Assembly: GCA_965204725.1 (NCBI GenBank)
Contig: OZ242005.1
Span: 704,001-768,000, forward strand
Source: Candidatus Latescibacterota bacterium
GTDB taxonomy: Bacteria; Latescibacterota; UBA2968; UBA8231
Direction: 5' to 3'
Length of the DNA: 64,000 bases
Positions 1-51,236 of the stretch are shown piece by piece (the stretch's first letter is position 1; each line of letters starts with the position of its first letter). Under the pieces are notes generated by a model that was given only the letters and a program-made list of their open reading frames with translations, ran no database searches and had not been told where the DNA came from. Made by a program: the position numbers and the translations under genes.

Positions 1-12
1 CTGCTGGACAAG

Positions 13-16698: not shown

Positions 16699-16700
16699 CG

Positions 16701-16838
16701 ATCGGCGGCAAGTGGGAACTCATTGATAAAGCTACGATGGAAAACCACGGTTTTGTGAATTGCGACAAAGAATGGTGGCACTATACGCTTAAAGACGAAC
16801 CTTATCCAGATACATACTTTGATTTTCCTGTAAGGTGA
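16701..16838 (+). pseudogene. C-terminal fragment of VanX/DdpX D-Ala-D-Ala dipeptidase (M15) fused to a WG-repeat remnant
   Basis: Translates IGGKWELIDKAT-MENHGFVNCDKEWWHYTLKDEPYPDTYFDFPVR*; EWWHY..DEPYP..YFDFPV is the VanX C-terminus. Confidence 0.8.
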
Positions 16839-16999
16839 TGGACGTTATGCGGTCGGCAGCCTCATGGAACCGACCCCTTGGTACGCTCTAACGCCTAACG
16901 GACGGTACGCCGCTTTTGTCCCCAACGACCCACGCCTGTATCCTTTTCGCTACACGCCAACGCCGCCGATCCCCAGCCCGCCCCTATGAGCCGCCGCCG

Positions 17000-17014
17000 T
17001 GGCACGATTCTTGC
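17000..17014 (+). promoter_or_regulatory. Sigma54 -24/-12 promoter upstream of Rpn gene
   Basis: TGGCACGATTCTTGC, a consensus match with GG-N10-GC spacing. Confidence 0.65.
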
Positions 17015-17060
17015 CGGTTGTGGATACCATCCCACCCCACCCGCAACCAAGGCAGGACCC

Positions 17061-17972: not shown

Positions 17973-18093
17973 GGCACCGCATAATATCGTTCCCAACCCG
18001 TTCAATCCTTCCACTCGGCGAGGAACTCAAGCGCGTCTTGCTGGCCGGACGCCTATATCCACGCCGTCCGCTATGCCAGCGAGCCAATAGTAG

Positions 18094-28009: not shown

Positions 28010-31000
28010 ATGGCCCGTATCTTGCCCCTCGTCATTTTGCTTGGGTTTGCCTCCCTAGCCGAAGCCAGCGTCGTCATCAGCGAAGTGCTCGCTGATCCGC
28101 CTTCAGGGGCGGCTGGCGACGCCAACCAAGATGGCCTGCGCCACACCTATCAGGACGAATTCATCGAACTATACAACGCCGGTTCAGCATCCGTCGATAT
28201 AAGCAACTGGCGGCTGGGCGACAGCGGGTCGCTGAACACCCACTTCCAATTCCCGTCTGGCGCAGTGATCGCCCCCGGCTCGTACGTCGTCCTCTTCGGC
28301 GGCGGTACGCCAGCGGGATTCACCGTCCCCGTCTATACCGATGGCGGGCGCATTGGCGACGGACTGAAAAACAGCGGCGAGAAAATCAGCCTGACCGACG
28401 CCAACGGCACGGAGGTCGCCAGCGTCTCGCACGACACTTGGCCCAAAGACCAGTCTATCGTCCGCAATCCACCCGGCAGCGGAGCGTTTGAACCCCACAA
28501 AACGGTCTCGTCAACTAGGGCACCCTTTTCGCCCGGCCGCGCCGTCAATGACTCGCCGCCTGAACCACCTGCCGAACCACCTGCCGAACCACCTGCCGAA
28601 CCACCTGCCGAACCACCTGCCGAACCGCCTGCCGAACCACCAACCGAACCCCAGACCCCCAGACCGGACTATCTCCTCTTCATCAGCGAAGTGCTCGCCG
28701 ATCCGCCTTTGGGGGCGGCTGGCGACGCCAATCAAGACGGCCAGCGCCACACCTCTCAAGACGAATTCGTCGAACTCTACAACGCCGGTTCAAATCCCAT
28801 CGACCTAAGCGGCTGGCGGTTGGGCGACAGCAATCAGCCGAACACCCACTTCCAATTTCCGTCCGGCGCGGTGATCGCCCCCGGCTCGTACGTCGTCCTC
28901 TTCGGCGGCGGCACACCAACGGGATTCGAGGTCCCCGTCTATACTGACGACGGAAAAATCGGCAACGGATTGACCAACAGCGGCGAGAAAGTTAGCCTGA
29001 CCGCCGCCAACGGCACGGAGATCGCCATCGTCTCGCACGACGATTGGCCCAAGAAGCAATCCCTCGTCCGCCATCCTCTCGACGGCGACGCGCTGGTCCC
29101 GCACAAAACCGCCTCAACGGTCAAGGCCCTCTTCTCGCCCGGGCGCACGCACATCATCCCCAAACCAGACTATCCCCTCTTCATCAGCGAGGTGCTCGCC
29201 GATCCGCCTTCGGGAGCGGCCGGCGACGCCAATAGAGACGGTCAGCGCGACTCCTATCAAGACGAATTCATCGAACTATACAACGCCGGGGCGGTTGCCA
29301 TCTCCTTGGCTGGCTGGCGGCTGGGCGACAGCAAGCCGCTGAACACCCACTTCCAATTCCCGCCCGGCGCGGCAATCGCCGGACATTCGTACGTCGTCCT
29401 CTTTGGCGGCGGCACGCCAACGGGATTCACGACCCCCGTCTATACCGACGACGGGCGCATTGGCAACGGCCTGACCAACAAGGGCGAGAAAATCAGCCTG
29501 ACCGACGTCAACGGCCACGAGATCGCCATTGTCTCGCACGACGATTGGCCCAAAGACCAGTCCTTCGTCCGCATCCCATCGGCGGGCGGCGCGCTGATCC
29601 CGCACAAAACCGCCTCGCCGACCGGAGCACCCTTCTCGCCCGGACACGCCGCGGACACGCGGCCGGTCATCACCTATCCCCTCTTCATCAGCGAGGTACT
29701 CGCCGATCCGCCTTCAGGAGCGGCCGGCGACGCCAATCGAGACGGCCGGCACGACCCCTACGAAGACGAGTTCATCGAACTATACAACGCCGGGCCCGTG
29801 CCCATCGCCCTCGCTGGCTGGCGGTTGGGCGACGCGGGGACGCTCAGCGATTACTTTCGCTTTCCGCGCAACGCCGTCATGGCCCCGCGCTCGTACCTCG
29901 TCCTCTTTGGCGGCGGCAAGCCCTCGGGGTTCACCATCCCCGTCTATACTGACGACGGACGCATTGGCAACGGCCTGCGAAACAGCGGCGAGTCGATCCA
30001 CCTAATCAACGATCACGGCCATGAGGCCGCGTCCCTCTTCCAATCCACTTGGCCCGCCGCCCAATCCCTCACCCGCGTCCCAGTCGCAGGGGGTACGCTA
30101 GTCCCGCACAAAACCGCCTCGCCGACCGAGGCTCCCTTCTCGCCCGGACACGCCCCCGCAATGCGGCCGGTCATCGCTCATGCCCTCTTCATCAGCGAGG
30201 TGCTCACCGACCCGCCTGAGAGACCGGCCGGCGACGCCAATCGAGACGGGCGGCACGATCCCTACGAAGACGAGTTCATCGAACTATACAACGCCGGGCC
30301 CGTGCCCATCGCCCTCGCCGGTTGGCGGTTGGGCGACGCGGGGACGCTCAACGATTACTTCCGCTTTCCGCGCAACGCCGTCATGGCCCCGCGCTCGTAC
30401 CTCGTCCTCTTTGGCGGCGGCAAGCCCTCGGGATTCACCATCCCCGTCTATACCGACGACGGGCGCATTGGCAACGGCCTGCAAAACAGCCGCGAGTCGA
30501 TTCACCTAATCGACGATCGCGGCGATGAGGTCGCGTCCATCTTTCAATCCACTTGGCCCGCTGCCCAATCCCTCACCCGCGTCCCAGCGGCGGGCGGCGC
30601 ATTAGTCCCGCACAAAACCGCCTCGCCCATCAGGGCACCCTTCTCGCCCGGACAAGCCCCAGAAACCCAGACTAAACCCACAAAGCCCAAACCGCCGCCC
30701 ATCCCCAAACCGATCTACGCCCTCTTCATCAGCGAGGTGCTCGCCGACCCGCCCGGCGACGCCAATCGAGACGGCCGGCACGACCCCTACGAGGACGAAT
30801 TCGTCGAACTATACAACGCCGGTCCAACCCCGGTCGATATAGGCGGCTGGCGGTTGGGCGACGCGGCCTCCCTCTTGTCTTACTTCCACTTCCCGGCCGG
30901 CGCGGTGATCGCCCCCGGCTCGTACGTCGTCCTCTTTGGCGGCGGCAGCCCGTCGGGATTCACCGTCCCCGTCTATACCGACGACGGACGCATCGGCAAC

Positions 31001-31489
31001 GGCCTGCAAAACAGCGGCGAAGCCATTCACCTGATCGACGCCACCGGCGATCTAATCGCCAGCCTCTCCCTGCCCACTTGGCCCGCCCGCCAGTCTATCG
31101 CCCGCCACCCACCCGACGGCGGCGCGTTGGTCCCGCACAAAACCGCCTCGCCGACCAGGGCACCCTTCTCGCCCGGACGAGCCAGCGAGCCAGCGGCCAA
31201 AACGCCCGGCCCGGCCTACTCCCTCCAAGTTTGGCCCAACCCCTTCAACGCAACCGCCCACCTCGGCTTCCACCTCAGCCAAGCCGCGACCATCCGCTTG
31301 GCGATCTACAATGTCCAAGGCCAACTCGTGCGCATACTGGTAGATGAGCCGCTCCACGCGGGCGTCCACCGGACGCTCTGGGATGGCCGCGACGAACTCG
31401 GCTATGCCGTGGGCACCGGCCCGTACTTCGCCCGCTTCCGCATCGCGCACCACGCCCCGCACTACGCCAAGCTCGTCCTCCTCCGCTAG
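28010..31489 (+). CDS. Secreted protein with six lamin-tail (LTD) domains and FlgD-Ig/T9SS-like CTD
   Basis: Six ISEVL.DPP...DAN.DG....DEF.ELYN...L.NSGE units; PNPFN...WDGRD...K.VLLR. Confidence 0.88.
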   Translation: MARILPLVILLGFASLAEASVVISEVLADPPSGAAGDANQDGLRHTYQDEFIELYNAGSASVDISNWRLGDSGSLNTHFQFPSGAVIAPGSYVVLFGGGTPAGFTVPVYTDGGRIGDGLKNSGEKISLTDANGTEVASVSHDTWPKDQSIVRNPPGSGAFEPHKTVSSTRAPFSPGRAVNDSPPEPPAEPPAEPPAEPPAEPPAEPPAEPPTEPQTPRPDYLLFISEVLADPPLGAAGDANQDGQRHTSQDEFVELYNAGSNPIDLSGWRLGDSNQPNTHFQFPSGAVIAPGSYVVLFGGGTPTGFEVPVYTDDGKIGNGLTNSGEKVSLTAANGTEIAIVSHDDWPKKQSLVRHPLDGDALVPHKTASTVKALFSPGRTHIIPKPDYPLFISEVLADPPSGAAGDANRDGQRDSYQDEFIELYNAGAVAISLAGWRLGDSKPLNTHFQFPPGAAIAGHSYVVLFGGGTPTGFTTPVYTDDGRIGNGLTNKGEKISLTDVNGHEIAIVSHDDWPKDQSFVRIPSAGGALIPHKTASPTGAPFSPGHAADTRPVITYPLFISEVLADPPSGAAGDANRDGRHDPYEDEFIELYNAGPVPIALAGWRLGDAGTLSDYFRFPRNAVMAPRSYLVLFGGGKPSGFTIPVYTDDGRIGNGLRNSGESIHLINDHGHEAASLFQSTWPAAQSLTRVPVAGGTLVPHKTASPTEAPFSPGHAPAMRPVIAHALFISEVLTDPPERPAGDANRDGRHDPYEDEFIELYNAGPVPIALAGWRLGDAGTLNDYFRFPRNAVMAPRSYLVLFGGGKPSGFTIPVYTDDGRIGNGLQNSRESIHLIDDRGDEVASIFQSTWPAAQSLTRVPAAGGALVPHKTASPIRAPFSPGQAPETQTKPTKPKPPPIPKPIYALFISEVLADPPGDANRDGRHDPYEDEFVELYNAGPTPVDIGGWRLGDAASLLSYFHFPAGAVIAPGSYVVLFGGGSPSGFTVPVYTDDGRIGNGLQNSGEAIHLIDATGDLIASLSLPTWPARQSIARHPPDGGALVPHKTASPTRAPFSPGRASEPAAKTPGPAYSLQVWPNPFNATAHLGFHLSQAATIRLAIYNVQGQLVRILVDEPLHAGVHRTLWDGRDELGYAVGTGPYFARFRIAHHAPHYAKLVLLR
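28562..28648 (+). repeat. 12 bp tandem repeat encoding an (EPPA)n linker
   Basis: GAACCACCTGCC about 7 times. Confidence 0.9.
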
Positions 31490-37947: not shown

Positions 37948-39981
37948 ATGCGCCGTGCCACTATCGTCCTGTTCACCCTAATTTGCGCGCAAGACGCCAC
38001 CGCCCAGATCGCCCACTGGCAGCTCGGCGGCAGCGGCCTAGCTTGGAGCGCAAACGACACGACCCGCCTCTTCATCGACTTCGCCACCACGCCCGGGGCC
38101 ATCCAGCCCACATACTTCACGCTCGACGAGACGGTTTTCTCCCACATCGACAACTGGGCCTTCTGGCGCGACCCCAGCGACCGCGTCTTCGACTACCTAG
38201 ACGGCGAAACCCCCCGAATGTGGAAGTGGAATCACGGCGTACCCGACCCCTCGGAAAACGGCTCTTGGCTCATTGACGGCGACCCTATCACTTACAACCC
38301 GCCCAAAGCCGACCGCATAGAAAAAGAAACCTTCACCATGGATTTGGGCGTTTTGGTGCCAGCCGTGGCCTTCGGCTTTATCCCGCCCAGCGAGGGCTTC
38401 CGCTCCGACGGCACCCCCCTGCAAACCGACTTCGTCCCCGCCTTTCAGGTGACTGCGGCCGTGGCGCCCGAGCCGCCCGTGCTCGAGGGGAACGTCAACC
38501 CGCTCTCCACCGTCATCGCCGACGTCAACTCCAATTTTGAACCGCGGGTGCGCATCGACTTTACCCGTCAGTACCTGCGCTTCTTTCGCTACCGCCGGAC
38601 GCTCTCGCTGCTAGACGAGGACGCCCAAGCCAAGAGCGGCAATGTCGCCATCGCCCTCATCGGCTCGATCAGCGAGTTCCAGCTCTTTGCCCAAGGAGTG
38701 CCCCAGCAGGCCATCTACAAGACCCAGATAACCCACCTCGGCGAACCGGTGAATTTCGGGCGGCTGTTCTGGCGGGCCACGAAATTCCGCATGGTCGATG
38801 GGACTGCGGTGGAAACTCCAGACGCGGCGGCCCAAATCAAGGTTGAGGTGCGCACCGGCCTAGACGACGACCCGGCCGTCTATCACGAATACATGGACAC
38901 CGGGCTAGAGCGCGTGGTGGAGCGCGATCACTACGAAAACGCCCTCCGCACTCGGTTTGTGCGCATCACGGCCGCGTCCGACCTGAGCGAACGCCAGCCC
39001 AAGCCGGGGGTCCGCGCGTCCATTGGCTACGATTCCGATCACTGGACTTTCTGGTCGGCCCCCTTTGTCGAATCGGGCCAACCGCTCAACCTGCGCAACG
39101 GAACCTATTTGCAGGTCCGCGTCGCCATGGAAAGCGATTCCTTCGACGATTTCGTGCGCCTCGACTCGTTGTGGGTCGAGACCGCGCCGCTGTTGGCCGC
39201 GACCGTGCGCGGCGAAGTGGCCGCCCTAGACGACCCACAGCCCGTCAGCGGGATTACCCAAGTCCCCTTGGGCGAAGCCATCGAATTCGTCTATGACCTC
39301 CAAGCCGATTTCACAGCGGTGGATGCCCCCGGCTTCGACCTATTGCGCCTGCGCACGGGGCACCAAACCGAGCTCAAGAGCCTGCAACTCGGCCCAAGCC
39401 GCCGAGAAACCGCGCCCGCCGCGGTCACCCCAGAGCCGGAGGGCTTGCTCATCCACCTGCCCGAGCGCATCACCCGCGCCAATAACCCGCCGATTCGCCT
39501 CGTCTTTGCAACGGAGATATTTGAATTTGCGACCACTTTCCAGAGCGAAGTCCTAGACAGCCAACGCGACCTTCTGCCGCAACCTGTCGTCGGTGCCGAT
39601 GTCGGCGAGGCCCTCTCGACCAACAGCCTGCGTGTGCTCGGCACCACCGAGCAAGAAACCGCTTTTATCCAGAACCTGACCTTTTCCTCGCCGGTCTTTT
39701 CGCCCAACGGCGACGGCATCCACGACGAATTGCGCGTCGCCTATTCGCTGTTCCGCCTGCCCGCAGCCGTGCCGGTCGTCCTCGCAGTCTATCGCCTCGA
39801 TGGCCGGCGCGTGGCCTCCATTGAGGCCGGCTTGCAAAACGCTGGCCCGCAGAGCCTGCGCTGGGATGGCCGCGACGAAACGGGCCGGCTCCTGCTGCCC
39901 GGCCTCTACCTGACCACCTTAACCCTGCGCTCGGAATTTGCCGCCAAGCCCCAGTTCCACCCTTTGGGGATCGCGTACTAA
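37948..39981 (+). CDS. Secreted protein with C-terminal FlgD-Ig / type B-like CTD
   Basis: Signal peptide; FSPNGDGIHD...WDGRD...PGLY...IAY. Confidence 0.75.
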   Translation: MRRATIVLFTLICAQDATAQIAHWQLGGSGLAWSANDTTRLFIDFATTPGAIQPTYFTLDETVFSHIDNWAFWRDPSDRVFDYLDGETPRMWKWNHGVPDPSENGSWLIDGDPITYNPPKADRIEKETFTMDLGVLVPAVAFGFIPPSEGFRSDGTPLQTDFVPAFQVTAAVAPEPPVLEGNVNPLSTVIADVNSNFEPRVRIDFTRQYLRFFRYRRTLSLLDEDAQAKSGNVAIALIGSISEFQLFAQGVPQQAIYKTQITHLGEPVNFGRLFWRATKFRMVDGTAVETPDAAAQIKVEVRTGLDDDPAVYHEYMDTGLERVVERDHYENALRTRFVRITAASDLSERQPKPGVRASIGYDSDHWTFWSAPFVESGQPLNLRNGTYLQVRVAMESDSFDDFVRLDSLWVETAPLLAATVRGEVAALDDPQPVSGITQVPLGEAIEFVYDLQADFTAVDAPGFDLLRLRTGHQTELKSLQLGPSRRETAPAAVTPEPEGLLIHLPERITRANNPPIRLVFATEIFEFATTFQSEVLDSQRDLLPQPVVGADVGEALSTNSLRVLGTTEQETAFIQNLTFSSPVFSPNGDGIHDELRVAYSLFRLPAAVPVVLAVYRLDGRRVASIEAGLQNAGPQSLRWDGRDETGRLLLPGLYLTTLTLRSEFAAKPQFHPLGIAY

Positions 39982-41427
39982 GTGAGCCGCCTGCCCCAAC
40001 TTCTGCTCGTGTTGGCTATCGCGCTGGCGGCTTTTGCCTACGGCGGCCTCGTCGTCCGCTACAAGCTATTCCCCTTCTCGGTTGTCTCCGACGGCGTAAA
40101 AACCTTGCGGACTATGTACGAGGTACATAAGAAAATTGATGATGGCCGATTCGCGCACTTCGCCGCAGTGCCGCCGGACAGCGCGGCCTCCAACCGCTTC
40201 GAGTTCGTACAAGGCGATGCCCTCAGCGGGCCGGTTCTGTGGCAGGGCGGACGCTACCAGTTCCTCGAGTATTGCCCCGACGAGGGATGCCTAGCGGTAG
40301 AGTACACCGCCACCGGCCAAGTCGCCCACGCCTACCCGTTCCTCCTCGATGAACTGGAACAGGCGGCAAACGCTGCCCGCTCGGACGAATTCCCGTACGG
40401 ACTATCCCCCTCCTTTTCTTTCGCTAGGGATGTTCATCTGATAGGCATATCGCGCTACGCAAATGGCGACCTGCTGGCGGTTTTTCATCAGGACGCGGCT
40501 TTCCCCTATGGTGCGGGCGTTGCGCGGGTCGATCGCGACGGGCATCCGGTCTGGTTCCGGCGCGACTACAGCCATCACTGGCCGCATATCGGAAACGACG
40601 GCGTCGCGCTGGTGCCCGGCATGTTGGCCAGCAGCGAGTCCATAGCTTTTGAGCGAGGACGAAGGACCATCGCGATCAAGTGCCCCAAGGGCAAAACGCA
40701 TCTCGACGCGATCGGCATTATCGACGGGAACGGACAGCTCCTAAAGCGCATCAACCTGATCGACGCCTTGCGCGACTCTCCATTCGCGCTCATCATCCAA
40801 TCCACCTCGAAGCTAAAAAATCCTACGGCCTCTCATACGGCTTCTCCGTGTGACCCTCTTCACCTCAACTTCGTCCACCGGCTTCGCGACGACGCTGGCG
40901 GGACGTGGGGCCTCGCGCCGGGCGACCTCGTAGCGTCCCTGCGCAACCTAAGCGCCTTCGCTATCCTCGATGGCGAATCCGGCCGCGTCAAGCGGCTGGT
41001 CCGGGGGAGTTTCTTGTACCAACACAGCGTCCAGCACCTGACGGGATCGACCTTTCTGATGTTCGACAATCACGGCGGCGATGCGGTTCACGGCCCCTCG
41101 CGGCTGCTGATGATCGACCTCGCCGACAGCCGGGAGACGACCCTCTTTCCCAACGACCAGACGCCCGAACCCCTGCGGCACCTGTTCTCCCACGACCAAA
41201 GCACCATCGACATCTCACCGGATCGCCAACGGGCGATGGTCGTATTCACCCGGCAGGGCATAGCCGTTGAGGTGTGCCTTGCCGATGGCGCGGTGCTCAA
41301 CGTTTTTCATTCTCTGCACGATGTGTCGAGCTTGGAGCAATTTCCCAAAGATCGGCAGCAAAGAGCCGCCGTATTCGAGATGAGCGGACTTTCATACATC
41401 CACAATCAAGGAGGAACGAGTCAATGA
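39982..41427 (+). CDS. Arylsulfotransferase (ASST)-family protein, copy 1
   Basis: N-terminal TM anchor; HHW, DPLHLN, LVASLRN, QHS, FDN motifs. Confidence 0.8.
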   Translation: MSRLPQLLLVLAIALAAFAYGGLVVRYKLFPFSVVSDGVKTLRTMYEVHKKIDDGRFAHFAAVPPDSAASNRFEFVQGDALSGPVLWQGGRYQFLEYCPDEGCLAVEYTATGQVAHAYPFLLDELEQAANAARSDEFPYGLSPSFSFARDVHLIGISRYANGDLLAVFHQDAAFPYGAGVARVDRDGHPVWFRRDYSHHWPHIGNDGVALVPGMLASSESIAFERGRRTIAIKCPKGKTHLDAIGIIDGNGQLLKRINLIDALRDSPFALIIQSTSKLKNPTASHTASPCDPLHLNFVHRLRDDAGGTWGLAPGDLVASLRNLSAFAILDGESGRVKRLVRGSFLYQHSVQHLTGSTFLMFDNHGGDAVHGPSRLLMIDLADSRETTLFPNDQTPEPLRHLFSHDQSTIDISPDRQRAMVVFTRQGIAVEVCLADGAVLNVFHSLHDVSSLEQFPKDRQQRAAVFEMSGLSYIHNQGGTSQ

Positions 41428-41609
41428 ACGAAGAAAGCATCGTCATGGCCTATATTGGCCCCGGAGCGGGCTTGGCGTCCATCGGGGCCTTGCTGACCCT
41501 AATAGGGGCTGGGCTGCTAATGGTATCGGGGTTTATCTGGTATCCAGCCAAGCGCATACTACAGAAGTGGAGGGAGAGGCGTGCCGCAAAAAAGAACGCC
41601 CCCCGATAA
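41424..41609 (+). CDS. Small membrane protein with AYIGPG motif
   Basis: MNEESIVMAYIGPGAG + TM helix + WYP + basic tail; AAGGAGG RBS, ATGA overlap. Confidence 0.7.
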   Translation: MNEESIVMAYIGPGAGLASIGALLTLIGAGLLMVSGFIWYPAKRILQKWRERRAAKKNAPR

Positions 41610-41645
41610 GACCTATCTACGCTTCGTGCGATACATCGGAAAGAG

Positions 41646-43076
41646 ATGAATCGCCTACCCCAACTCCTGTTCGTGTTGGCCCTTGCGCTGGCGATCTTTG
41701 CCTACGGCTATCTGAGTCGCCACTACAAGCTATTCCCCTTCTCGGCCATCCACAACGGCGTAAAGACCTTGCGGACTCTGCACGAGCTACATACGAGAAA
41801 GGACAACGGCCGATTCGCGCACTTTGCCGCGGTGCCGCCGGGCAGCGCGGCCTCCCACCGCTTCGAGTTCGTGGCCAGCGATGCCCTCAGCGGCCCGGTT
41901 CTGTGGCACGGCGGACGCTACCAGTTCCTCGAGTATTGCCCCGACGGAGGATGCCTAGCGGTAGAGTTCACAGCCACCGGCCAAGTCGCCCACGCCTACC
42001 CGTTCCGCTTCGATGAACTCGAACAGGCGTCAAACGCTGCCAGCTTCGACGAATTCCCCTACGAGCTATCCCCCGCCTCCTCTTTCGCTAGGGATACTAG
42101 TATAGCGGGCATATCGCGATACATGAACGGCGACCTGCTAGTGGTTTTCCGAACCACTGCGTTCCCGTTTGGTGCGGGCGTTGCGCGGATCGACCGCGCC
42201 GGGCATCCCGTCTGGTTCCGGCGCGACTACAGCCACCACTGGCCGCATCTCGAAGAAGACGGCGTCGCGCTAGTGCCCGGCATGTTGGTCGGTAGCGAGT
42301 CCATATCCTTTGAGCGAGGACCAAAGACCATCACGATTAAGTGCCGCGAGGGCCGACCGTACCTCGACGCGATTAGCACTATCGACGAGGATGGACGGCT
42401 TCTAAGGCGCATCAACCTGATCGACGCCTTGCGCGATTCTCCATTCGCGCACATCATGCAATCCACCTCGGATACAAATTACCGTCTTGCCGCGCCGTGT
42501 GACCCCCTTCACCTCAACTTCGTCCACCGGCTTCGGGACGACGCCGGCGGGACGTGGGGCCTCGCGCCGGGCGACCTCGTGGCGTCCCTACGCAACCTAA
42601 GCGCATTCGCTATCCTCGATGGCGAATCCGGCCGCGTCAAGCGGCTGGTTCGGGGCAGCTTCTTCTATCAACACAGCGTCCAGCACTTAACGGGATCAAC
42701 CTTCCTGATGTTCGACAACTGGGGCGGCGATGGGGTTTACGGCCCCTCGCGGCTGCTGATGATCAACCTCGCCGACAGCCGGGAGACGACCGTCTTTCCC
42801 AACGATAAGACGCCCGAATCCCTGCGAAACCTGTTCTCCGACAAACAAGGCACCATCGACATCTCGCCCGACCGTCAACGGGCGATGGTCGTATTCTTCC
42901 AGCAGGGCGTGACCGTTGAGGTGCGCCTCGCCGACGGCGCGGTGCTGAATGTCTTTCGTTCTCTGCACGATGTGTCGAGCTTGGAGCAATTTCCCGAAGA
43001 GCGGCAGCAAAGATCCGCCGTATTCACGATGAGCGGACTTTACTACATCCACGATCAAGGAGGAGCGAGTAGGTGA
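41646..43076 (+). CDS. Arylsulfotransferase-family protein, copy 2
   Basis: Same motifs; high identity to neighbours. Confidence 0.8.
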   Translation: MNRLPQLLFVLALALAIFAYGYLSRHYKLFPFSAIHNGVKTLRTLHELHTRKDNGRFAHFAAVPPGSAASHRFEFVASDALSGPVLWHGGRYQFLEYCPDGGCLAVEFTATGQVAHAYPFRFDELEQASNAASFDEFPYELSPASSFARDTSIAGISRYMNGDLLVVFRTTAFPFGAGVARIDRAGHPVWFRRDYSHHWPHLEEDGVALVPGMLVGSESISFERGPKTITIKCREGRPYLDAISTIDEDGRLLRRINLIDALRDSPFAHIMQSTSDTNYRLAAPCDPLHLNFVHRLRDDAGGTWGLAPGDLVASLRNLSAFAILDGESGRVKRLVRGSFFYQHSVQHLTGSTFLMFDNWGGDGVYGPSRLLMINLADSRETTVFPNDKTPESLRNLFSDKQGTIDISPDRQRAMVVFFQQGVTVEVRLADGAVLNVFRSLHDVSSLEQFPEERQQRSAVFTMSGLYYIHDQGGASR

Positions 43077-44557
43077 ATCGCCTACCCCAACTTCTGCTTG
43101 TGTTGGCTCTTATGCTGGCGGCCTTTGCCTACGGCGGCCTTGTCGTCCGCTATAAGCTATTCCCCTTCTCGGTCCTCGCCGACGGCCTAAAGACCTTGCG
43201 GACTATGTACGAGGTACATAAGGAAATTGACGCCGGCCAATTCGCGCACTTCGCCGCGGTGCCGCCGGACAGCGCGGCCTCTAACCGCTTCGAGTTCTTG
43301 GCCGGCGATGCCCTCAGCGGGCCGATTCTGTGGCACGGCGGACGCTACCAGTTCCTCGAGTATTGCCCCGACTGGGGATGCCTAGCGGTAGAATACACGG
43401 CCACTGGCCAAGTCGCCCACGCCTACCCGTTCCGCCCCGATGAACTCGAACAGGCGGCAACCGCTGCCCAATCCGACGAATTCTCCTACGAGCTATCCCC
43501 CGCCTTCTCTTTCGTCAGGGATGTTGTTGTGGCAGCCATATCGCGCTACGCGAATGGCGACCTGCTGGTGGTTTTTCGCCATAGCACTGCGTTCCCTTAT
43601 GGTGCGGGCGTTGCGCGGATCGACCGCACCGGGCATCCGGTCTGGTTCCGGCGCGACTACAGCCACCACTGGCCGCATCTCGAAGAAGACGGCATCGCGC
43701 TGGTGCCCGGCCTGTTGGTCGGCAGCGAGTCCATAGCCTTTGAGCGAGCACAAAAGACCATCACGATTAAGTGCCACGAGAGCCGACCGTACCTCGACGC
43801 GATTAGCACTATCGACGAGGATGGACGGCTTCTAAGGCGCATCAACCTGATCGACGCCTTGCGCGATTCTCCATTCGCGCCCATCATGCAATCTACCTCG
43901 GAACCCAAACGCCATCTTGACGAGCTGCGTGACCCCCTTGACCTCAACTTCGTTCGCAGGCTTCGGGACGACGCGCTGTGCGACCCTCTTCACCTCAACT
44001 TTGTCCACCGGCTTCGGGACGACGCCGGCGGGGCATGGGGCCTCGCGCCGGGCGACCTCGTGGCGTCCCTGCGCAATCTAAGCGCATTCGCTGTCCTCGA
44101 TGGCGAATCCGGCCGCGTCAAGCGGCTGGTTCGGGGGAGTTTCTTCTATCAACACAGCGTCTATCACCTAACGGGATCGACCTTCCTGATGTTCGACAAC
44201 TGGGGCGGCGATGGGGTTCACGGCCCCTCGCGGCTGCTGATGATCGACCTCGCCGACGGCCGGGAGACGACCGTCTTTCCCAACGATAAGACGCCCGCAC
44301 CCCTGCGAAACCTGTTCTCCGACAGAGAAGGCAATATCGACATCTCGCCCGACCGCCAACGGGCGATGGTCGCATTCACCAAGGAGGGCGTGGCTGTCGA
44401 GGTGCGCCTCGCCGACGGCGCGGTGCTGAATGTCTTTCATTCCCTGCACGGTGTGTCGAGCTTGGAGCAGTTCCCCGAGGAGCGAAAGCAAAGAGCGGCT
44501 GTATTCGAGATGAGAGGAATTTACTACATCCGCAATCAAGGAGGAGCGAGTAGGTGA
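43073..44557 (+). CDS. Arylsulfotransferase-family protein, copy 3 (17-aa internal duplication)
   Basis: Same motifs; GTGA overlap. Confidence 0.8.
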   Translation: MNRLPQLLLVLALMLAAFAYGGLVVRYKLFPFSVLADGLKTLRTMYEVHKEIDAGQFAHFAAVPPDSAASNRFEFLAGDALSGPILWHGGRYQFLEYCPDWGCLAVEYTATGQVAHAYPFRPDELEQAATAAQSDEFSYELSPAFSFVRDVVVAAISRYANGDLLVVFRHSTAFPYGAGVARIDRTGHPVWFRRDYSHHWPHLEEDGIALVPGLLVGSESIAFERAQKTITIKCHESRPYLDAISTIDEDGRLLRRINLIDALRDSPFAPIMQSTSEPKRHLDELRDPLDLNFVRRLRDDALCDPLHLNFVHRLRDDAGGAWGLAPGDLVASLRNLSAFAVLDGESGRVKRLVRGSFFYQHSVYHLTGSTFLMFDNWGGDGVHGPSRLLMIDLADGRETTVFPNDKTPAPLRNLFSDREGNIDISPDRQRAMVAFTKEGVAVEVRLADGAVLNVFHSLHGVSSLEQFPEERKQRAAVFEMRGIYYIRNQGGASR

Positions 44558-45990
44558 ATCGCCTACCCCAACTCCTGCTTGTGTTGGCTATCGCGCTGGC
44601 GTCGTTTGCCTACGGCGGCCTTGTCGTCCACTACAAGCTATTCCCCTTCCCGGTCCTCTCCGACAGCCTAAAGACCTTGCGGACTATGCACGAGCTACAT
44701 TTTACGAGAAAGGACGACGGCCGATTCTTACATTTCGCCGCGGTGCCGCCGGACAGCGCGGCTTCCCACCGCTTCCAATTCCTACAAGGCGATGCCCTCA
44801 GCGGCCCGGTTCTGTGGCACGGCGGACGCAACCAGTTCCTCGAGCATTGCCCCGACGGGGGATGCCTAGCGGTAGAATACACCGCCACCGGCCAAGTCGC
44901 CCATGCCTATCCGTTCCGCAACGATGAACTGGAGCAGGCGGCCGACGCTGCAAGCTCCGACGAATTCCCCTACGAGTTATCCCCCGTCGCCTCTTTCGCT
45001 AGGGATGCTAGTACGATGGGCATGTCGCGATACATGAACGGCGACCTGCTGGTGGTTTTTCAACAGTACGCTGCTTTCCCGTTTGGTGCGGGCGTTGCGC
45101 GGATCGACCGCGCCGGGCATCCGGTGTGGTTCCGGCGCGACTACAGCCACCACTGGCCGCATCTCGAAGAAGACGGCGTCGCGCTGGTGCCCGGCCTGTT
45201 GGTCGGCAGCGAGTCCATAGCCTTTGAGCGAGCACGAAAGACCATCACGATTAAGTGCCGCACGAGCCGACCGTACCTCGACGCGATCGGCATTATCGAC
45301 GGCAGTGGACGGCTTCTAAGGCGCGTCAACCTGATCGACGCCTTGCGCGATTCTCCATTCGTCCATCTCCTGCAATCCACCTCGGAACCCAAACGCCGTC
45401 TTGACGCGCTGTGTGACCCCCTTCACCTCAACTTCGTTCACCGGCTTCGAGCCGACGCCGGCGGAACGTGGGGCCTCGCGCCGGGCGATCTCGTGGCGTC
45501 CCTACGCAACCTCAGTGCCTTCGCTATCCTCGATGGCGAATCCGGCCGTGTCAAACGGATGGTTCGGGGGAGTTTCTTCTATCAACACAGCGTCCAGCAC
45601 CTGACGGGATCGACCTTCCTGATGTTCGACAACTGGGGCGGCGATGGGGTTCACGGCCCCTCGCGGCTGCTGATGATCGACCTCGCCGACGGCCGGGAGA
45701 CGACCGTCTTTCCCAACGACCAGACGCCCCAATCCCTGCGCAACCTGTTCTCCGAGGACCAAGGCACAATCGACATCTCGCCCGACCGCCAACGGGCGGT
45801 GGTCGCATTCACCGAGGCGGGCATGGCTGTCGAGGTGCGCCTTGCCGACGGCGCAGTGCTGAATGTCTTTCATTCCCTCCACGATGTGTCGAGCTTGGAG
45901 CAGTTCCCCGAACAACGAAAGCAAAGAGCAGCCGTATTCGAGATGAGAGGGCTTTACTACATCCGCAATCAAGGAGGAGCGAGTAGATGA
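44554..45990 (+). CDS. Arylsulfotransferase-family protein, copy 4
   Basis: Same motifs; GTGA overlap. Confidence 0.8.
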   Translation: MNRLPQLLLVLAIALASFAYGGLVVHYKLFPFPVLSDSLKTLRTMHELHFTRKDDGRFLHFAAVPPDSAASHRFQFLQGDALSGPVLWHGGRNQFLEHCPDGGCLAVEYTATGQVAHAYPFRNDELEQAADAASSDEFPYELSPVASFARDASTMGMSRYMNGDLLVVFQQYAAFPFGAGVARIDRAGHPVWFRRDYSHHWPHLEEDGVALVPGLLVGSESIAFERARKTITIKCRTSRPYLDAIGIIDGSGRLLRRVNLIDALRDSPFVHLLQSTSEPKRRLDALCDPLHLNFVHRLRADAGGTWGLAPGDLVASLRNLSAFAILDGESGRVKRMVRGSFFYQHSVQHLTGSTFLMFDNWGGDGVHGPSRLLMIDLADGRETTVFPNDQTPQSLRNLFSEDQGTIDISPDRQRAVVAFTEAGMAVEVRLADGAVLNVFHSLHDVSSLEQFPEQRKQRAAVFEMRGLYYIRNQGGASR

Positions 45991-47420
45991 ATCGCCTACC
46001 CCAACTCCTGCTTGTGTTGGCTGTCGCGCTGGCGTCCTTTGCCTACGGCCTCTTTGTCGTCCGCTACAAGCTATTCCCCTTCTCGGTCCTCTCCGACGGT
46101 CTAAAGACCTCGAACACTCTGTACGAGTCAAGTATGAAAAAGAATTACGGCCGATTCGTACACTTCGCCGCGGTGCCGCCGGACAGCGCGGCCTCCAACC
46201 GCTTCGAGTTCGCACAAGGCGATGCCCTTAGCGGGCCGGTTCTGTGGCACGGCGGACGCTACCAGTTCCTCGAGCATTGCCCTGACTGGGGATGCCTAGC
46301 AGTAGAGTTCACGGCCACCGGCCAAGTCGCCCACGCCTATCCGTACCGCCTCAATGAACTGGAGCAGGCGGCCGACGATGCCCTCTCCGACGAATTCCCC
46401 TACGAGCTACCCCCCACCTTCTCTTTCGCTAGGGATGCTAGTGCGATGGGTATGTCGCGATACATGAACGGCGACCTGCTGGTGATTTTTCGACATAGCA
46501 CTGCTTTCCCCTATGGTGCGGGCGTTGCGAGGATTGACCGCGATGGGCATCCGGTCTGGTTCCGGCGCGACTACAGCCACCACTGGCCGCATATCGACGA
46601 CGACGGCGTCGCGCTGGTGCCCGGCGAACAGGTTGGCAGCGAGTCTATATCTTTTGAGCGAGCGCGAAGGACCATCACGCTCAAATGCCGCACGAGCCGA
46701 CCGTATATCGAGGAGATCAGGACTATCGACGGGAATGGACGGCTCCTAAAGCGCCTCAACCTGCTCGACGTCCTGCGCGATTCTCCATTCGCGCACATCA
46801 TGCAATCTGCCTCGGCACCAGCATGGTATCTTGATGGGCCGTGTGATCCCCTTCACCTCAACTTCGTTCACCGGCTCCGCGACGACGCGGGCGGGACATG
46901 GGGCCTCGCGCCGGGCGACCTCGTGGCGTCCCTACGGAACCTAAGCGCATTCGCTATCCTCGATGGCGAATCCGGCCGCGTCAAGCGGCTGGTTAGGGGA
47001 AGTTTCCTCTATCAACATAGCGTCCAGCACCTGACGGGATCGACCTTCCTGATGTTCGACAATTACGGCGGCGATGGGGTTCACGGCCCCTCAAGGCTGC
47101 TCATGATCGACCTCGCCGACGGCCGGGAGACGACCGTCTTTCCCAACGATAAGACGCCCCAACCCCTGCGAAACCTGTTCTCCGACGACCAAGGCGATAT
47201 CGACATCTCGCCTGACCGCCAACGGGCGCTGGTCGCATTCACGAGGGAGGGCGTGGCCGTTGAGGTGCGCCTTGCCGACGGCGCGGTGCTGAATGTCTTC
47301 CATTCCCTCCACGATGTGTCGAGCTTGGAGCAGTTCCCCGAACAGCGGCAACAAAGAGCCGCCGTATTTAAGATGGGAGGGCTTTACTACATCCGCAATC
47401 AAGGAGGAACGAGTAGATGA
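45987..47420 (+). CDS. Arylsulfotransferase-family protein, copy 5
   Basis: Same motifs; ATGA overlap. Confidence 0.8.
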   Translation: MNRLPQLLLVLAVALASFAYGLFVVRYKLFPFSVLSDGLKTSNTLYESSMKKNYGRFVHFAAVPPDSAASNRFEFAQGDALSGPVLWHGGRYQFLEHCPDWGCLAVEFTATGQVAHAYPYRLNELEQAADDALSDEFPYELPPTFSFARDASAMGMSRYMNGDLLVIFRHSTAFPYGAGVARIDRDGHPVWFRRDYSHHWPHIDDDGVALVPGEQVGSESISFERARRTITLKCRTSRPYIEEIRTIDGNGRLLKRLNLLDVLRDSPFAHIMQSASAPAWYLDGPCDPLHLNFVHRLRDDAGGTWGLAPGDLVASLRNLSAFAILDGESGRVKRLVRGSFLYQHSVQHLTGSTFLMFDNYGGDGVHGPSRLLMIDLADGRETTVFPNDKTPQPLRNLFSDDQGDIDISPDRQRALVAFTREGVAVEVRLADGAVLNVFHSLHDVSSLEQFPEQRQQRAAVFKMGGLYYIRNQGGTSR

Positions 47421-48835
47421 GTCGCCTACCCCAACTCCTGCTCGTGTTGGCCCTTGCGCTGGCGGCCTTTGCCTACGGCTATCTTAGTCGCCACTACAAG
47501 CTATTCCCCTTCTCGGCCATCCACAACGGCGTAAAGACCTTGCGGACTCTACACAAGCTAAGTATGAGAAAGGACGACGGCCGATTCGCGCACTTCGCCG
47601 CGGTGCCGCCAGACAGCGCGGCCTCCAACCGCTTCGAGTTCGTACAAGGCGATGCCATCAACGACCCGATTCTGTGGCAAGGCGGACGCTATCAGTTCCT
47701 TGAGTATTGCCCCGACTGGGGGTGCCTAGCGGTAGAATACACCGCCACCGGCCAAGTCGCCCATGCCTACCCGTTCCGCAGCGATGAGCTGGAGCAGGCG
47801 GCAGACGCTGCCCGCTCCGACGAATTCCCCTACGAGCTATCCCCCGCCGCCTCTTTCGTCAGGGATGTTAATGTGGCAGCCATGTCGCGCTACGCAAACG
47901 GCGACCTGCTGGTGGTTTTTTACCAAGACCCTGCTTTCCCCTATGGTGCGGGCGTTGCGCGGATCGACCGCGCCGGGCATCCCGTCTGGTTCCGGCGCGA
48001 CTACAGCCACCACTGGCCGCATCTCGAAGAAGACGGCGTCGCGCTGGTGCCCGGCCTGTTGGTTGGCAGCGCGCCCATATCTTTTGAGCGAGCACGAAAG
48101 ACCATCACGATCAAGTGCCGCACAGGCCGACCGTATCTCGACGAGATCCGCACTATTGACGGGAGTGGACAGATCCTAAAGCGCCTCAACCTGATCGACG
48201 CCTTGCGCGACTCTCCATTCGCGCACATCATGCAATCTACCTCGGAACCAAATTACCGTCTTGACTCGCCGTGTGACCCTCTTCACCTCAACTTCGTTCA
48301 CCAGCTTCGAGACGACGCCGGCGGAACGTGGGGCCTCGCGCCGGGCGACCTCGTGGCGTCCCTACGCAACCTCAGTGCCTTCGCTATCCTCGATGGCGAA
48401 TCCGGCCGCGTCAAGCGGCTGGTACGCGGGAGTTTCTTGTATCAACACAGCGTCCAGCACCTGACGGGATCGACCTTCCTGATGTTTGACAACTGGGGCA
48501 GCGATGGGATTCACGGCCCCTCGCGGCTGCTGATGATCGACCTCGCCGACGGCCGGGAGACGACCGTCTTTCCCAACGACCAGACGCCCCAACCCCTGCG
48601 AAACCTATTCTCCCACGACCAAAGCACCATCGACATCTCGCCCGACCGCCAACGGGCGATGGTCGCATTCACCAAGGAGGGCGTGGCCGTAGAGGTGCGC
48701 CTCGCCGACGGCGCGGTGCTGAATGTCTTCCATTCCCTGCACGATGTGTCGAGCTTGGAGCAGTTCCCCGAGGAGCGAAAGCAAAGAGCGGCCGTATTCG
48801 AGATGAGAGGAATTTACTACATTCGCAGTAGATGA
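47417..48835 (+). CDS. Arylsulfotransferase-family protein, copy 6
   Basis: Same motifs; ATGA overlap. Confidence 0.8.
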   Translation: MSRLPQLLLVLALALAAFAYGYLSRHYKLFPFSAIHNGVKTLRTLHKLSMRKDDGRFAHFAAVPPDSAASNRFEFVQGDAINDPILWQGGRYQFLEYCPDWGCLAVEYTATGQVAHAYPFRSDELEQAADAARSDEFPYELSPAASFVRDVNVAAMSRYANGDLLVVFYQDPAFPYGAGVARIDRAGHPVWFRRDYSHHWPHLEEDGVALVPGLLVGSAPISFERARKTITIKCRTGRPYLDEIRTIDGSGQILKRLNLIDALRDSPFAHIMQSTSEPNYRLDSPCDPLHLNFVHQLRDDAGGTWGLAPGDLVASLRNLSAFAILDGESGRVKRLVRGSFLYQHSVQHLTGSTFLMFDNWGSDGIHGPSRLLMIDLADGRETTVFPNDQTPQPLRNLFSHDQSTIDISPDRQRAMVAFTKEGVAVEVRLADGAVLNVFHSLHDVSSLEQFPEERKQRAAVFEMRGIYYIRSR

Positions 48836-48884
48836 CGAGCAACGCATCGTCATGGCATCCATTCGCCTACTAAGGAGGCTTCCA

Positions 48885-51236
48885 ATGCAACGCGCAATAA
48901 TCGCCGGTCTCGTCCTGAGTGCCCCACTCGCGGCTGACATGCTCTCCTTCGACAGTGCCGAAGAATGGGCCCAATGGCAACAACCCTTTGGCTTGGTCCA
49001 AGTCGGCGAGCAGGGCCAGCTCGCGCTCGTCAAATTCCGCCGCGACATCAACCTCGTCGAGGACGCGCACCGCTTCGTCCACGAAACCCGCACCCGCGGC
49101 GATGCGGTCGCCGGGGGCCTCTGGCAAGCCGGTTCCAACGCGGCCGACGCTCCGCTGGCCATCGACGGCGATCCAACGACCTATTGGCAACCCAGTCCAG
49201 ACGACGCCCGCGAGGACTGGTTTATCACCATCGACTTAGGCCGCGCAGCCCTAGCCCGCGAGATTCGCCTGACATTCCCCGACCAAGAAGGCGCGCACCC
49301 GCTTCGCCAATTCCGCGTATTCACCACCTCGGGCGTACGCATCTCGGCCACCGACGATCTCTTCCTCTACCGCCCCGTCTTCCGCACCACGCGCCCCAAC
49401 GCCGAGTCCGAAATCGTCATCCCGCTGCGCTACGCCGGCCGCGACACGGCGATAGTGACGAACCCCGACTTGGATTTGACGCCCGCAGAGCGCAACCACT
49501 ACCAGTTGATCCAGTACATCCAAATCATTTCCGAAGAACAGAACGCCAACGCCGCCCTCGCCGAGATTGAGGTTATCGGCATCGGCGACAACATTGCCAT
49601 CGGCACCAGCCAACGCGGCAATTTCGTCGAAGGCGACGGCACCGGCTCCACCTTCAACCTCTTCGACGCCAACCTCAACACCAACAACACCGTCACCAGC
49701 TGCCGCGGCACCCTGTCGGAATGGGCCGAAGGCGGCACGTGGTTCCGCACGGACTTGGGCGCGACGTTCTTTATCGACGAGATGTTCATCTACTCCATGC
49801 AGCCAGACGAAGGCACCTTGGGGTTCACCATCTCGGGCACGGGACCGGGGCACACCCTGCTCTTTTCCGACGGCACACCGGCCACGGGCACGACCCCCCT
49901 CGTCGAAGTGCCCGAAAACGTCGATTACGAAGAGGTCTTCACCCATCTAGCCCCCAACGCCGACAACCTGCTTTACATGCGCTACCTGTTCGCGCCGCGC
50001 AAGGCCCGCTACTTGTTCTGGCACGGCGTGAGCTGTAGGGGCTGGGGCATCGTCAAGTGGGGCGAGATGCAACTGTTCTCTCCGGGGTATCCAGCGCAAG
50101 TCAAGTTGCAGTCCGACTTTATCAACCTCGGGGAGGAAGCCGGCGATGGGAGGCCCAAAGTCATCAAAGCCCTGCACTGGGACGCCGACCTGCCGCCGGG
50201 CACCCGGGTGCAGCTCCGCTCCCGCTCGGGCAACGCGCTCAGCGCGGAGTACACCTTTTACGACAAGAAGGGCGACAGGGTCACTGAGGAGAAGTGGAAG
50301 AGCTTGCCCAAGGTGATTAGAGGGCCTGTTGACTCGACCTTGGTCACGGGCGAGGACTGGAACGCGTTTAGCAATACCTACCAGTTCTCGGGCGAGCCTT
50401 TCAAATCGGCCAGCCCGCGCCGCTTCATCGTGCTGGAAATGATCCTCTCCACCGACGACCCGGCTGTCGCCCCGACCGTCCATTCGGTCTCGGTCGAGTT
50501 TGAGGATGCCCTAGTCCAAGGCGCGCGCGGCAGCGTCGCCCCCCGCGAGGCCAGCCCCAACCAAGACACGCGCTTCACCTATACCCTCTGGCCCGAGACC
50601 GACGAACTCGACCGGGGCTTCGATCTGCTGCGCTTCACCGTGTCCGAACCTATAGACCTACAGAGCGTCGCGGTGCGGGTCGGCGCGGAACAGGTCGTTC
50701 CGACCGCCTTGGACCTACAGGCCGATTCCCTGCTCATCGCATTGCCGCAGGTGGTCGCCGGCGACTCGCTGCAAGTGAGCTTTACGACCCGCCTGTTGCA
50801 AAACGCCACCGTCTTTGCCCTCGACCTGGGATTGAGCGAATCCCCGGGCCTGTGGCAGTCGGTCGAGGCGGCCGAGCGCCGCTCCAACATCGTCATGCTG
50901 CCCGAACTGACCAGCACCGGCCAGCTCATCAGCGACCTACAGCTTGCTTCTACGACCATAACCCCCAACGGCGACGGCATCAACGACCAGCTAGCGGTGC
51001 GATTCGTCGCCTTCAAGGTCGAGGGCCGCGAGCCGCAAGTGGAAGTATTCGACCTAGCCGGACGCCGAGTAGCAGTCCTCACCCCAAGCTCCGACAGCTC
51101 GCAACGCCTCTTCACTTGGGACGGCCGCGACGCCAACGGAGCGAGCGCCGCCCCCGGCCTATACGTCCTGCGCGTCAATCTAGACGCCGACGCCGGCAAC
51201 GACACCGCACTCCGCACCATCGCCGTAGCCTACTAA
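48885..51236 (+). CDS. Secreted discoidin-like domain protein with FlgD-Ig / type B-like CTD
   Basis: AAGGAGG RBS; AIDGDPTTYW...IDLG; ITPNGDGIND...WDGRD...PGLY...AVAY; paralogous to 37948-39981. Confidence 0.75.
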   Translation: MQRAIIAGLVLSAPLAADMLSFDSAEEWAQWQQPFGLVQVGEQGQLALVKFRRDINLVEDAHRFVHETRTRGDAVAGGLWQAGSNAADAPLAIDGDPTTYWQPSPDDAREDWFITIDLGRAALAREIRLTFPDQEGAHPLRQFRVFTTSGVRISATDDLFLYRPVFRTTRPNAESEIVIPLRYAGRDTAIVTNPDLDLTPAERNHYQLIQYIQIISEEQNANAALAEIEVIGIGDNIAIGTSQRGNFVEGDGTGSTFNLFDANLNTNNTVTSCRGTLSEWAEGGTWFRTDLGATFFIDEMFIYSMQPDEGTLGFTISGTGPGHTLLFSDGTPATGTTPLVEVPENVDYEEVFTHLAPNADNLLYMRYLFAPRKARYLFWHGVSCRGWGIVKWGEMQLFSPGYPAQVKLQSDFINLGEEAGDGRPKVIKALHWDADLPPGTRVQLRSRSGNALSAEYTFYDKKGDRVTEEKWKSLPKVIRGPVDSTLVTGEDWNAFSNTYQFSGEPFKSASPRRFIVLEMILSTDDPAVAPTVHSVSVEFEDALVQGARGSVAPREASPNQDTRFTYTLWPETDELDRGFDLLRFTVSEPIDLQSVAVRVGAEQVVPTALDLQADSLLIALPQVVAGDSLQVSFTTRLLQNATVFALDLGLSESPGLWQSVEAAERRSNIVMLPELTSTGQLISDLQLASTTITPNGDGINDQLAVRFVAFKVEGREPQVEVFDLAGRRVAVLTPSSDSSQRLFTWDGRDANGASAAPGLYVLRVNLDADAGNDTALRTIAVAY

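Follow-up and report, generated by a model that had tools for sequence, protein, structure and literature searches.

The question raised by this locus is what a row of six similar, closely packed genes encodes, how the copies came to differ from each other, and whether their differences could matter for the function of the proteins. The genes occupy positions 39982-48835 of the forward strand of a 64,000-nucleotide stretch of contig OZ242005.1 (assembly GCA_965204725.1) from a Candidatus Latescibacterota bacterium; the whole of this stretch is called here the window. A first-pass annotation had proposed a tandem array of arylsulfotransferase (ASST)-like enzymes in which gene conversion shuffles substrate-facing loops. 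The best explanation as a whole, to which we give slightly better than even credence, is that these are exported, membrane-tethered enzymes with the ASST fold, that they arose by a lineage-specific, translationally coupled and mosaic tandem expansion, and that they probably transfer sulfuryl groups.

The open reading frame (ORF) check of the window gives six intact paralogues on the forward strand, 472-494 amino acids (aa) long, where six intact paralogues of about 480 aa had been announced with coordinates that proved exact. They are c1 (39982-41427, 481 aa, GTG start), c2 (41646-43076, 476 aa, ATG), c3 (43073-44557, 494 aa, GTG), c4 (44554-45990, 478 aa, GTG), c5 (45987-47420, 477 aa, ATG) and c6 (47417-48835, 472 aa, ATG). 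A tblastn search with c4 as query recovers the same six and no seventh copy in the 64 kb. Pairwise identities among them are 78.6-84.3% for protein and 84.8-89.4% for DNA, and the motifs HHW, DPLHLN, QHS and FDN, as noted in the first pass, occur once each in all six. Within c3, a tandem duplication at 43919-44025 of the forward strand (51 nt, 2.1 copies, 83% matches by the program TRF) doubles 17 residues around DPLHLN; the first repeat has D at the position of the motif's H, and a relative, P0011, shares the duplication with H in both repeats.

An assembler might be confused by copies of 85-89% DNA similarity whose junctions are near-identical, and the array might be a concatenation of strain alleles of one or two genes. 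This is very improbable for several reasons: i) the proteins of the window map to a contig of 5,381,243 bases, ii) the copies are separated by a synonymous divergence (dS) of 0.15-0.33, which greatly exceeds that seen between strains, iii) every junction is a functional-looking overlap, and iv) counterparts of different copies are found together in other assemblies. Related to the last point, the best non-self identities are 95.6% for c1 (P0025), 96.0% for c2 (P0008), 87.2% for c3 (P0011), 85.0% for c4, 99.8% for c5 (P0013) and 99.2% for c6 (P0010, followed by P0009 with 97.5%), which means that four of the six copies (c1, c2, c5 and c6) have counterparts 95.6-99.8% identical elsewhere. A contig of 53,866 bases carries c1-, c2- and c6-like proteins together with a fourth, and another of 190,051 bases carries c5- and c6-like proteins. 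The presence of several counterparts on one contig in other assemblies indicates that the array is real and that individual copies persist.

The junctions between the genes are near-identical. The stop and start codons overlap by four nucleotides, as GTGA at c2/c3 and c3/c4 and as ATGA at c4/c5 and c5/c6, and the element AAGGAGG lies 16 nt upstream of the starts of c3, c4, c5 and c6, in agreement with the coupling proposed earlier for copies 2-6. The first of these elements (43057-43063, forward strand) is placed inside the 3' end of c2; the same element is found on the forward strand at 44538, 45971 and 47401 before the next three copies and at 41408 before a small ORF of 61 aa, so that five of the nine forward-strand AAGGAGG sites of the whole window belong to array junctions. 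It is to this 61-aa ORF, and not to c2, that c1 is translationally coupled. The C-terminal tail QGG(A/T)S(R/Q) of the proteins is the translated ribosome-binding element; c6, the last copy, has no QGG(A/T)S tail, and two relatives have a stop codon ahead of the tail. From this arrangement, the six genes would be expressed as a single translationally coupled unit.

Four consecutive 4-nt overlaps with strong ribosome-binding sites would also suit subunits of one hetero-oligomer whose stoichiometry is set by the coupling, and the E. coli ASST is a homodimer according to the part of PMC13426309 available. On the other hand, a locus in close relatives contains two copies or just one, and single copies occur by themselves, which indicates that no fixed subunit set is needed; hetero-oligomerisation is consequently considered improbable.

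Regarding the identity of the proteins, their sole Pfam match is PF14269 (Arylsulfotran_2), with the gathering score of 27 bits as cut-off. It is passed by five of the six copies (c1 35.8, c2 37.1, c4 32.4, c5 36.4 and c6 32.3 bits; range 32.3-37.1), and c3 stays below with 26.1 bits; six relatives from another genome, described below, score 29.5-38.3 bits. PF05935 is absent at E <= 0.01 from all six in the Pfam scan. The AlphaFold2 model of c4 (mean predicted local distance difference test 94.7, predicted template modelling score 0.92) consists of a hydrophobic helix at residues 4-27, a second helix at 32-51 and a beta-propeller whose first strand begins at residue 58, with no N-terminal beta-sandwich. 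When this model is compared with the Protein Data Bank (PDB) by Foldseek, the sulfotransferase Cpz4 comes first (9kf6/9kf4; E 2e-13 to 3e-13, template modelling (TM) score 0.46-0.50) and E. coli ASST second (E 2e-11 to 8e-10). Ranks 1-11 are all one or the other, and the first unrelated propeller appears at E 2.7e-8. The look-alike clusters of the atlas, from Pseudomonadota, Bacteroidota and Planctomycetota, are all labelled ASST. In a library clustered at 50%, the family is represented by 1403 entries at E <= 1e-3, of which 213 reach E <= 1e-30. The proteins belong, then, to the ASST superfamily, as the homology searches and the best-matching folds agree with the family assigned in the first pass; they are of the short PF14269 type and not classical ASSTs, because they have neither the beta-sandwich nor a match to PF05935. 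The membrane anchor that had been predicted has a candidate in the hydrophobic helix 4-27 of the model, and this helix and four near-invariant cysteines would be compatible with an extracytoplasmic location.

A putative active site can be outlined from the conservation across 99 aligned family members, with residues numbered as in c4. Near-invariant positions are C99, C104, H199, H200, C235, C287, D288, H291, N293, Q344, H345, D359, N360 and R371; R318 and S370 are also conserved and, together with H199-H200, H291-x-N293 and R371, they are candidates for sulfuryl binding, matched to E. coli ASST by motif and spacing only. By strand topology, the conserved His/Asn/Arg set (HHW, DPLHLN, SLRN, QHS, FDN and SR) falls on one face of the propeller. 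In E. coli ASST, His436 is transiently sulfated with the help of His252, His356, Asn358, Arg374 and Thr501 (PMC13426309, in the part available). The H-x-N motif, the Arg of SLRN and the His of QH would fit this mechanism, as judged by motif matching. A family profile run against the sequences of the PDB finds Cpz4 at E 5.9e-6, with QH (including the near-invariant H345), FDN and SR aligned, and this is the only solved protein found by sequence; with E. coli ASST (3elq) the match has E 0.68 and pairs chain residues 433-514 with profile positions 337-409. A second profile, made from the C-terminal halves of 12 close copies, gave chance-level matches only against PDB sequences (E >= 0.3).

An ASST-like fold could nevertheless serve another chemistry; its His-rich propeller face might, for example, transfer a different group or carry out a hydrolysis. 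The likeness to the solved ASSTs is remote (11-17% identity, and the profile E value of 0.68 just mentioned), c4 has no NCBIfam match, and a membrane helix stands in place of the E. coli beta-sandwich. Against this possibility, the top matches in both structure and sequence are two solved sulfotransferases, ahead of other propellers, the QH, FDN and SR motifs align with those of Cpz4, and the H-x-N spacing seems to be that of His356-x-Asn358 of E. coli ASST. Another chemistry is therefore regarded as unlikely, although it deserves serious attention.

A further result concerns the way in which the six sequences differ. Out of 1413 ungapped columns, 400 are variable and 169 parsimony-informative, and the biallelic informative sites show all 25 possible splits of six sequences, clustered along the gene. 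The pairwise homoplasy index (PHI) is 0.417; the permutations average 0.551 (sd 0.011), and not one of the 2000 reached the observed value. The longest shared runs are those of c2 and c3 (nt 715-810, 29 variable sites) and of c2 and c6 (nt 70-133, 23 variable sites), each with p 0.0005; over the 15 pairs, the shared-run test gives p < 0.05 in six and not in nine. The nearest neighbour of each copy shifts along the gene. Related to this, the segment trees contain (c2,c6) at nt 1-180 (support 100/100), (c2,c3) at nt 661-840 (84/88), and both (c1,c2) (96/95) and (c3,c6) (82/84) at nt 1321-1497, while the whole-gene tree is unresolved (35/59). In the approximately unbiased (AU) test, with groupings picked after the trees had been seen, c2+c6 is rejected by nt 181-1497 (p 0.001) and c1+c2 by nt 1-180 (p 0.0012). 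The six short strings that the first-pass annotation had listed as specific to pairs of copies are each present in exactly the pair named.

Shared amino acids could also reflect convergent selection or homoplasy without any exchange of DNA, and with six sequences only there are few states per site. But the PHI permutations just cited speak against it, and the synonymous divergence collapses in the shared tracts: the proportion of synonymous differences (pS) is there 0-0.08, in comparison with 0.15-0.24 in the remainder of the same pair, with 0.0 differences in 28.3 synonymous sites for c2-c3 (codons 234-272) and 2.0 in 35.3 for c2-c6 (codons 1-45). This indicates that DNA was copied, and convergence is hardly credible as the source of the pattern. 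The same kind of swap is found among relatives from other assemblies. P0002 and P0004 are identical in three segments (60/60, 30/30 and 83/83 residues), but over residues 141-180 their agreement falls to 27/40, and there P0002 agrees with c6 at 37/40; P0003 equals P0004 at residues 61-180 (80/80 and 40/40) and P0016 at residues 391-478 (88/88). The copies have repeatedly exchanged stretches of DNA, whether through gene conversion or through unequal recombination, and as a result each gene is a mosaic. The segmental exchange suggested in the first pass is in this way borne out, and no single congruent tree describes the genes.

The history of the locus can be followed through its relatives. A tree of 96 rows was computed (LG+G4, quick tree search), leaving out three hits shorter than 440 aa and taking seven more distant hits as outgroup. 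The six copies of the window all belong to a single 36-row clade with support 93, and each of them groups with proteins from other assemblies. The relatives come from environmental genomes of Latescibacterota type, with no host connection seen, and the example of host aromatics given in the first pass finds no support. Synteny was compared with one Candidatus Latescibacterota metagenome-assembled genome (MAG), the sole related genome in the collection searched, which has six ASST-like copies at four loci, L001-L004, arranged as 2, 1, 2 and 1. L003 is syntenic with the window, as it contains Dus, an enolase-superfamily gene, a FlgD-Ig protein, two overlapping ASST-like genes and a discoidin protein; the other three loci have unrelated gene contexts. 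In L001, a DDE transposase fragment (PF13612) is situated at 9407-9952, between the two ASST-like copies.

The flanks of the array are 91.4-96.5% identical in protein to those of L003, and about 91-92% in DNA up to 39991, whereas the ASST-like genes reach 77-80% in DNA and, when c4 is the query, 70-75% in protein. The identity falls sharply at the array borders, 39991 and 48835, and the copy number at this site is six in the window and two in L003. Conserved flanks around a stretch of low identity and differing copy number characterise a fast-evolving, hypervariable island. As for synonymous divergence, dS is 0.22-0.26 between the flanks of both genomes and 0.40-0.51 between window and L003 copies, compared with the range of 0.15-0.33 among the six copies; these values indicate that the sets which the two genomes have at this site are not orthologous. 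The expansion to six copies took place around the split from the close relative or later, bearing in mind that conversion lowers the dS values among copies.

The measures of selection differ between parts of the gene. The pairwise whole-gene dN/dS (nonsynonymous to synonymous divergence) is 0.38-0.67 among the six copies, and 0.08-0.21 in four flanking genes. The ratio pN/pS (nonsynonymous to synonymous proportions of differences) is 0.08 in the core (residues 292-360) and rises to 1.62 in the juxtamembrane helix 28-55, the most variable element, in which 20 of 28 positions vary. For the propeller, the catalytic face was taken as the class holding the conserved His/Asn/Arg residues (D-A loops, B-C loops and starts of A strands), faces being assigned by the strand order of the model and not by three-dimensional distances. 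The loops of this face have pN/pS 0.60, with 49/117 positions varying and 21/117 showing three or more states; the strands 0.43 (46/152 and 13/152), and the opposite-face loops 0.31 (24/86 and 6/86). The difference between the catalytic-face loops and the other two classes pooled has p 0.023 for any variation and p 0.007 for three or more states (21/117 vs 19/238). Variation thus appears, on the model, to be modestly enriched in the loops of the active-site face. The variable blocks described in the first pass (RD......SRY, VF....AFP, QSTS......CDPLH and FS......ID) are all found, three of them in face loops and RD......SRY at the start of an A strand beside the face; some details differ, as the FS block has five variable residues instead of six, and in the VF....AFP block c5 reads IF and c2 has three variable residues. 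Of the earlier suggestion that substrate-facing loops are the ones diversified, the enrichment of multi-state positions in catalytic-face loops remains, but the helix 28-55 is the most variable part and the positions concerned also vary family-wide.

The copies might be, alternatively, redundant duplicates that drift under relaxed constraint and undergo neutral gene conversion, with no new specificities. Several data are in keeping with drift: the positions that vary among paralogues are those variable in the whole family (Spearman 0.41), the whole-gene pN/pS (0.38-0.67) is below 1, the blocks 150-160, 399-408 and 419-424, with pN/pS 1.3-1.6, were selected post hoc because they are variable, and close relatives differ in copy number. 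However, the six copies are intact with a core pN/pS of 0.08, four of them have the near-identical counterparts that testify to the persistence of individual copies, and the catalytic face has more than its share of multi-state positions. Drift without functional consequence is, in our estimation, rather unlikely.

Returning to the explanation preferred here, a tandem expansion of exported enzymes that probably transfer sulfuryl groups, a number of the results weigh against it. Concerning the family, the Pfam scores are close to threshold, with c3 under it; the proteins have no beta-sandwich as in E. coli ASST and no PF05935 match; the solved ASSTs are distant (11-17% identity, TM about 0.45-0.50); and the placement of QH at His436 fits by the end coordinates of the 3elq match alone. 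Concerning expression, promoter-like sites (3 vs 3.6 +/- 1.7 in shuffles) and terminator-like sites (19 vs 14.2 +/- 4.3) show no excess, for which reason the single operon is deduced from the overlaps only. Concerning mosaicism, the AU groupings were chosen after inspection of the trees. Concerning diversification, the blocks above 1 were likewise picked after they had been seen to vary, the faces depend on strand order, variability among paralogues follows that of the family, and with an overall pN/pS below 1 adaptive diversification is weakly supported.

With these reservations, the array would be a lineage-specific tandem expansion of an exported ASST-fold enzyme, each copy being predicted to have an N-terminal hydrophobic signal-anchor helix, a second helix and a beta-propeller, and all would be produced from one translationally coupled transcript. 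The likely chemistry would be a ping-pong sulfuryl transfer through a sulfo-His345 (c4 numbering), from an aryl sulfate donor to acceptors that may be chosen by the loops around the active site. Purifying selection on the catalytic core keeps the copies intact while the rest diverges rapidly, and this divergence may alter specificity. The family expands and contracts at the locus, with segment exchange presumably aided by the near-identical junctions and the conserved cores.

A bolder extension of this explanation, which we consider quite doubtful, is that the array and the dispersed copies of the genome form a cassette-exchange repertoire, in which active-face segments such as residues 141-180 move between co-expressed paralogues. 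If this were true, close strains would carry different sets of exported sulfotransferase specificities, and the locus would be a hypervariable enzyme island under diversifying selection between conserved flanks. A possible driver would be the modification, by the products of the locus, of envelope or type IX secretion system (T9SS)-type surface proteins seen by phages or grazers.

Two further elements accompany the array. The 61-aa ORF (41424-41609, forward strand) encodes a single-pass membrane protein; its ATG overlaps the stop codon of c1 as ATGA. It has an acidic N-terminus, a GPGAG motif and a basic C-terminus, belongs to no NCBIfam family, and has 14 homologues, all of 38-63 aa and confined to this lineage. 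In the alignment, 36 of 63 columns are invariant among 12 of the 14 homologues, and six of the 14 are on contigs of the same size as contigs bearing ASST-like proteins. The small ORF also follows the single ASST-like genes at L002 and L004, and it is decayed after L001b. A complex of c1 with the 61-aa protein was predicted with a score of 0.02, the mark being 0.32, which speaks neither way. The second element lies after c6, where an ATGA overlap and sequence similar to the first part of the 61-aa ORF (48832-48884, forward strand) appear to be a vestige of the 5' end of the same small ORF, judging by their resemblance; such a vestige also follows the second copy in L003 (11370-11420).

The array is bordered on the same strand by two larger genes. 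Upstream, at 37948-39981, a secreted-type protein of 677 aa ends in a FlgD-Ig domain (T9SS-like sorting; Pfam FlgD_ig, 29 bits); its stop codon abuts the start of c1, and it is 91.4% identical to its L003 counterpart. Downstream, at 48852-51236, there is an ORF of 794 aa with discoidin (F5/8 type C) and FlgD-Ig/CHU_C sorting domains, 91.6% identical to the L003 counterpart; the gene probably starts after the AAGGAGG at 48872, at ATG 48885, which opens a typical signal peptide. The two flanking proteins are distantly paralogous (24% identity over 442 aa, E 1e-23), and both fall into 'hypothetical' families of the discoidin/FlgD-Ig kind that are found most often in Latescibacterota and Gemmatimonadota.

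Export-related genes are also seen farther away in the window. They include a tandem pair of paralogues of 691 and 683 aa (902-2977 and 3032-5083) with LDL-receptor class B (YWTD) propeller repeats and C-terminal FlgD-Ig, a protein with an FGE-sulfatase domain and a T9SS type A sorting domain (9474-11237), an outer-membrane protein of the PorV/PorQ family (25879-26808; NF033709, 141.9 bits), and a 1159-aa protein with six lamin-tail domains (28010-31489; PF00932, 386 bits) and a FlgD-Ig/T9SS-type tail. The PorV/PorQ gene, the T9SS sorting domain and the many FlgD-Ig tails point to a T9SS-like export system. The GC content is 0.54-0.56 at 1-4000, 8001-10000 and 16001-18000, and 0.616 in the window; these dips coincide with a DUF4143 fragment, a gene with a T5orf172/MUG113 domain (8431-9123) and a weak match to Rpn-family nucleases/transposases (16986-17972), and the low-GC stretches may have a mobile or foreign origin. 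Searches of the window for RNA genes gave no tRNA, no tmRNA and no Rfam family.

Gene conversion among tandem paralogues, with mosaic or concerted evolution as its outcome, is a general and well-known process, and the array likewise presents incongruent segment trees, tracts of low dS and a significant PHI. It differs from systems of programmed variation, since no reverse transcriptase, silent cassettes or invertase adjoin it. A diversity-generating retroelement was considered and rejected: no reverse-transcriptase domain is present in the 45 window proteins scanned with Pfam, and TRF detected only the 51-nt duplication between 39000 and 52000, no dedicated search for template and variable repeats having been made. 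Silent-cassette systems of the pilE/pilS type consist of one expressed gene and truncated, promoterless donor cassettes. Such a system was also rejected, as the six copies are all full-length with a start codon, and five upstream AAGGAGG elements serve c3-c6 and the small ORF. Among the open-access papers listed by full-text searches, none deals with ASST arrays in Latescibacterota, none links gene conversion to ASST genes, and none concerns bacterial arrays of PF14269/Arylsulfotran_2.

Among characterised proteins, the most similar is Cpz4, from caprazamycin biosynthesis in Streptomyces (PDB 9kf4, 9kf6), which is a short ASST of PF14269 type with about the same size (472 aa) and 16-17% identity only to the array proteins. 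According to the available part of PMC13426309, Cpz4 is the product of one gene within an antibiotic cluster, and it sulfates the hydroxyl of a sugar; in the array, by contrast, there are six coupled genes, their proteins have a membrane helix, and no biosynthetic cluster surrounds them. AssT/EcAST from E. coli CFT073 (PDB 3elq, 3ets, 3ett, 4p04-4p07) is exported, as is predicted for the array proteins, and likewise has a beta-propeller catalytic domain with a His-rich active face, but its identity to the array proteins is 11-12%, and these have two N-terminal helices and no PF05935. Another large expansion of sulfotransferase paralogues independent of 3'-phosphoadenosine-5'-phosphosulfate (PAPS) within one genome is that of the gut bacterium Sutterella wadsworthensis, with 8-17 annotated asst genes per strain in numbers that vary between relatives (PMC10932419, in the part available). 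Its ASSTs, by contrast, are classical ones of about 600 aa that carry Sec or Tat signal peptides. The same part of that paper describes no coupled tandem array, the words 'tandem' and 'paralog' are absent from the paper, and gene conversion is not a subject of it.

Multi-copy ASST families and gene conversion were already known, and the locus reveals no new mechanism of variation; what it adds is a mosaic tandem array in an uncharacterised short, membrane-anchored branch of the ASSTs. Biocatalysis has an interest in PAPS-independent sulfotransferases, few of whose natural substrates are known (PMC13426309, in the portion available). The locus provides six natural, closely related variants of this branch that differ mainly within a few blocks, which makes them a ready panel for mapping donor and acceptor specificity. 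At the same time, it shows the quick turnover of an enzyme family in an uncultured phylum.

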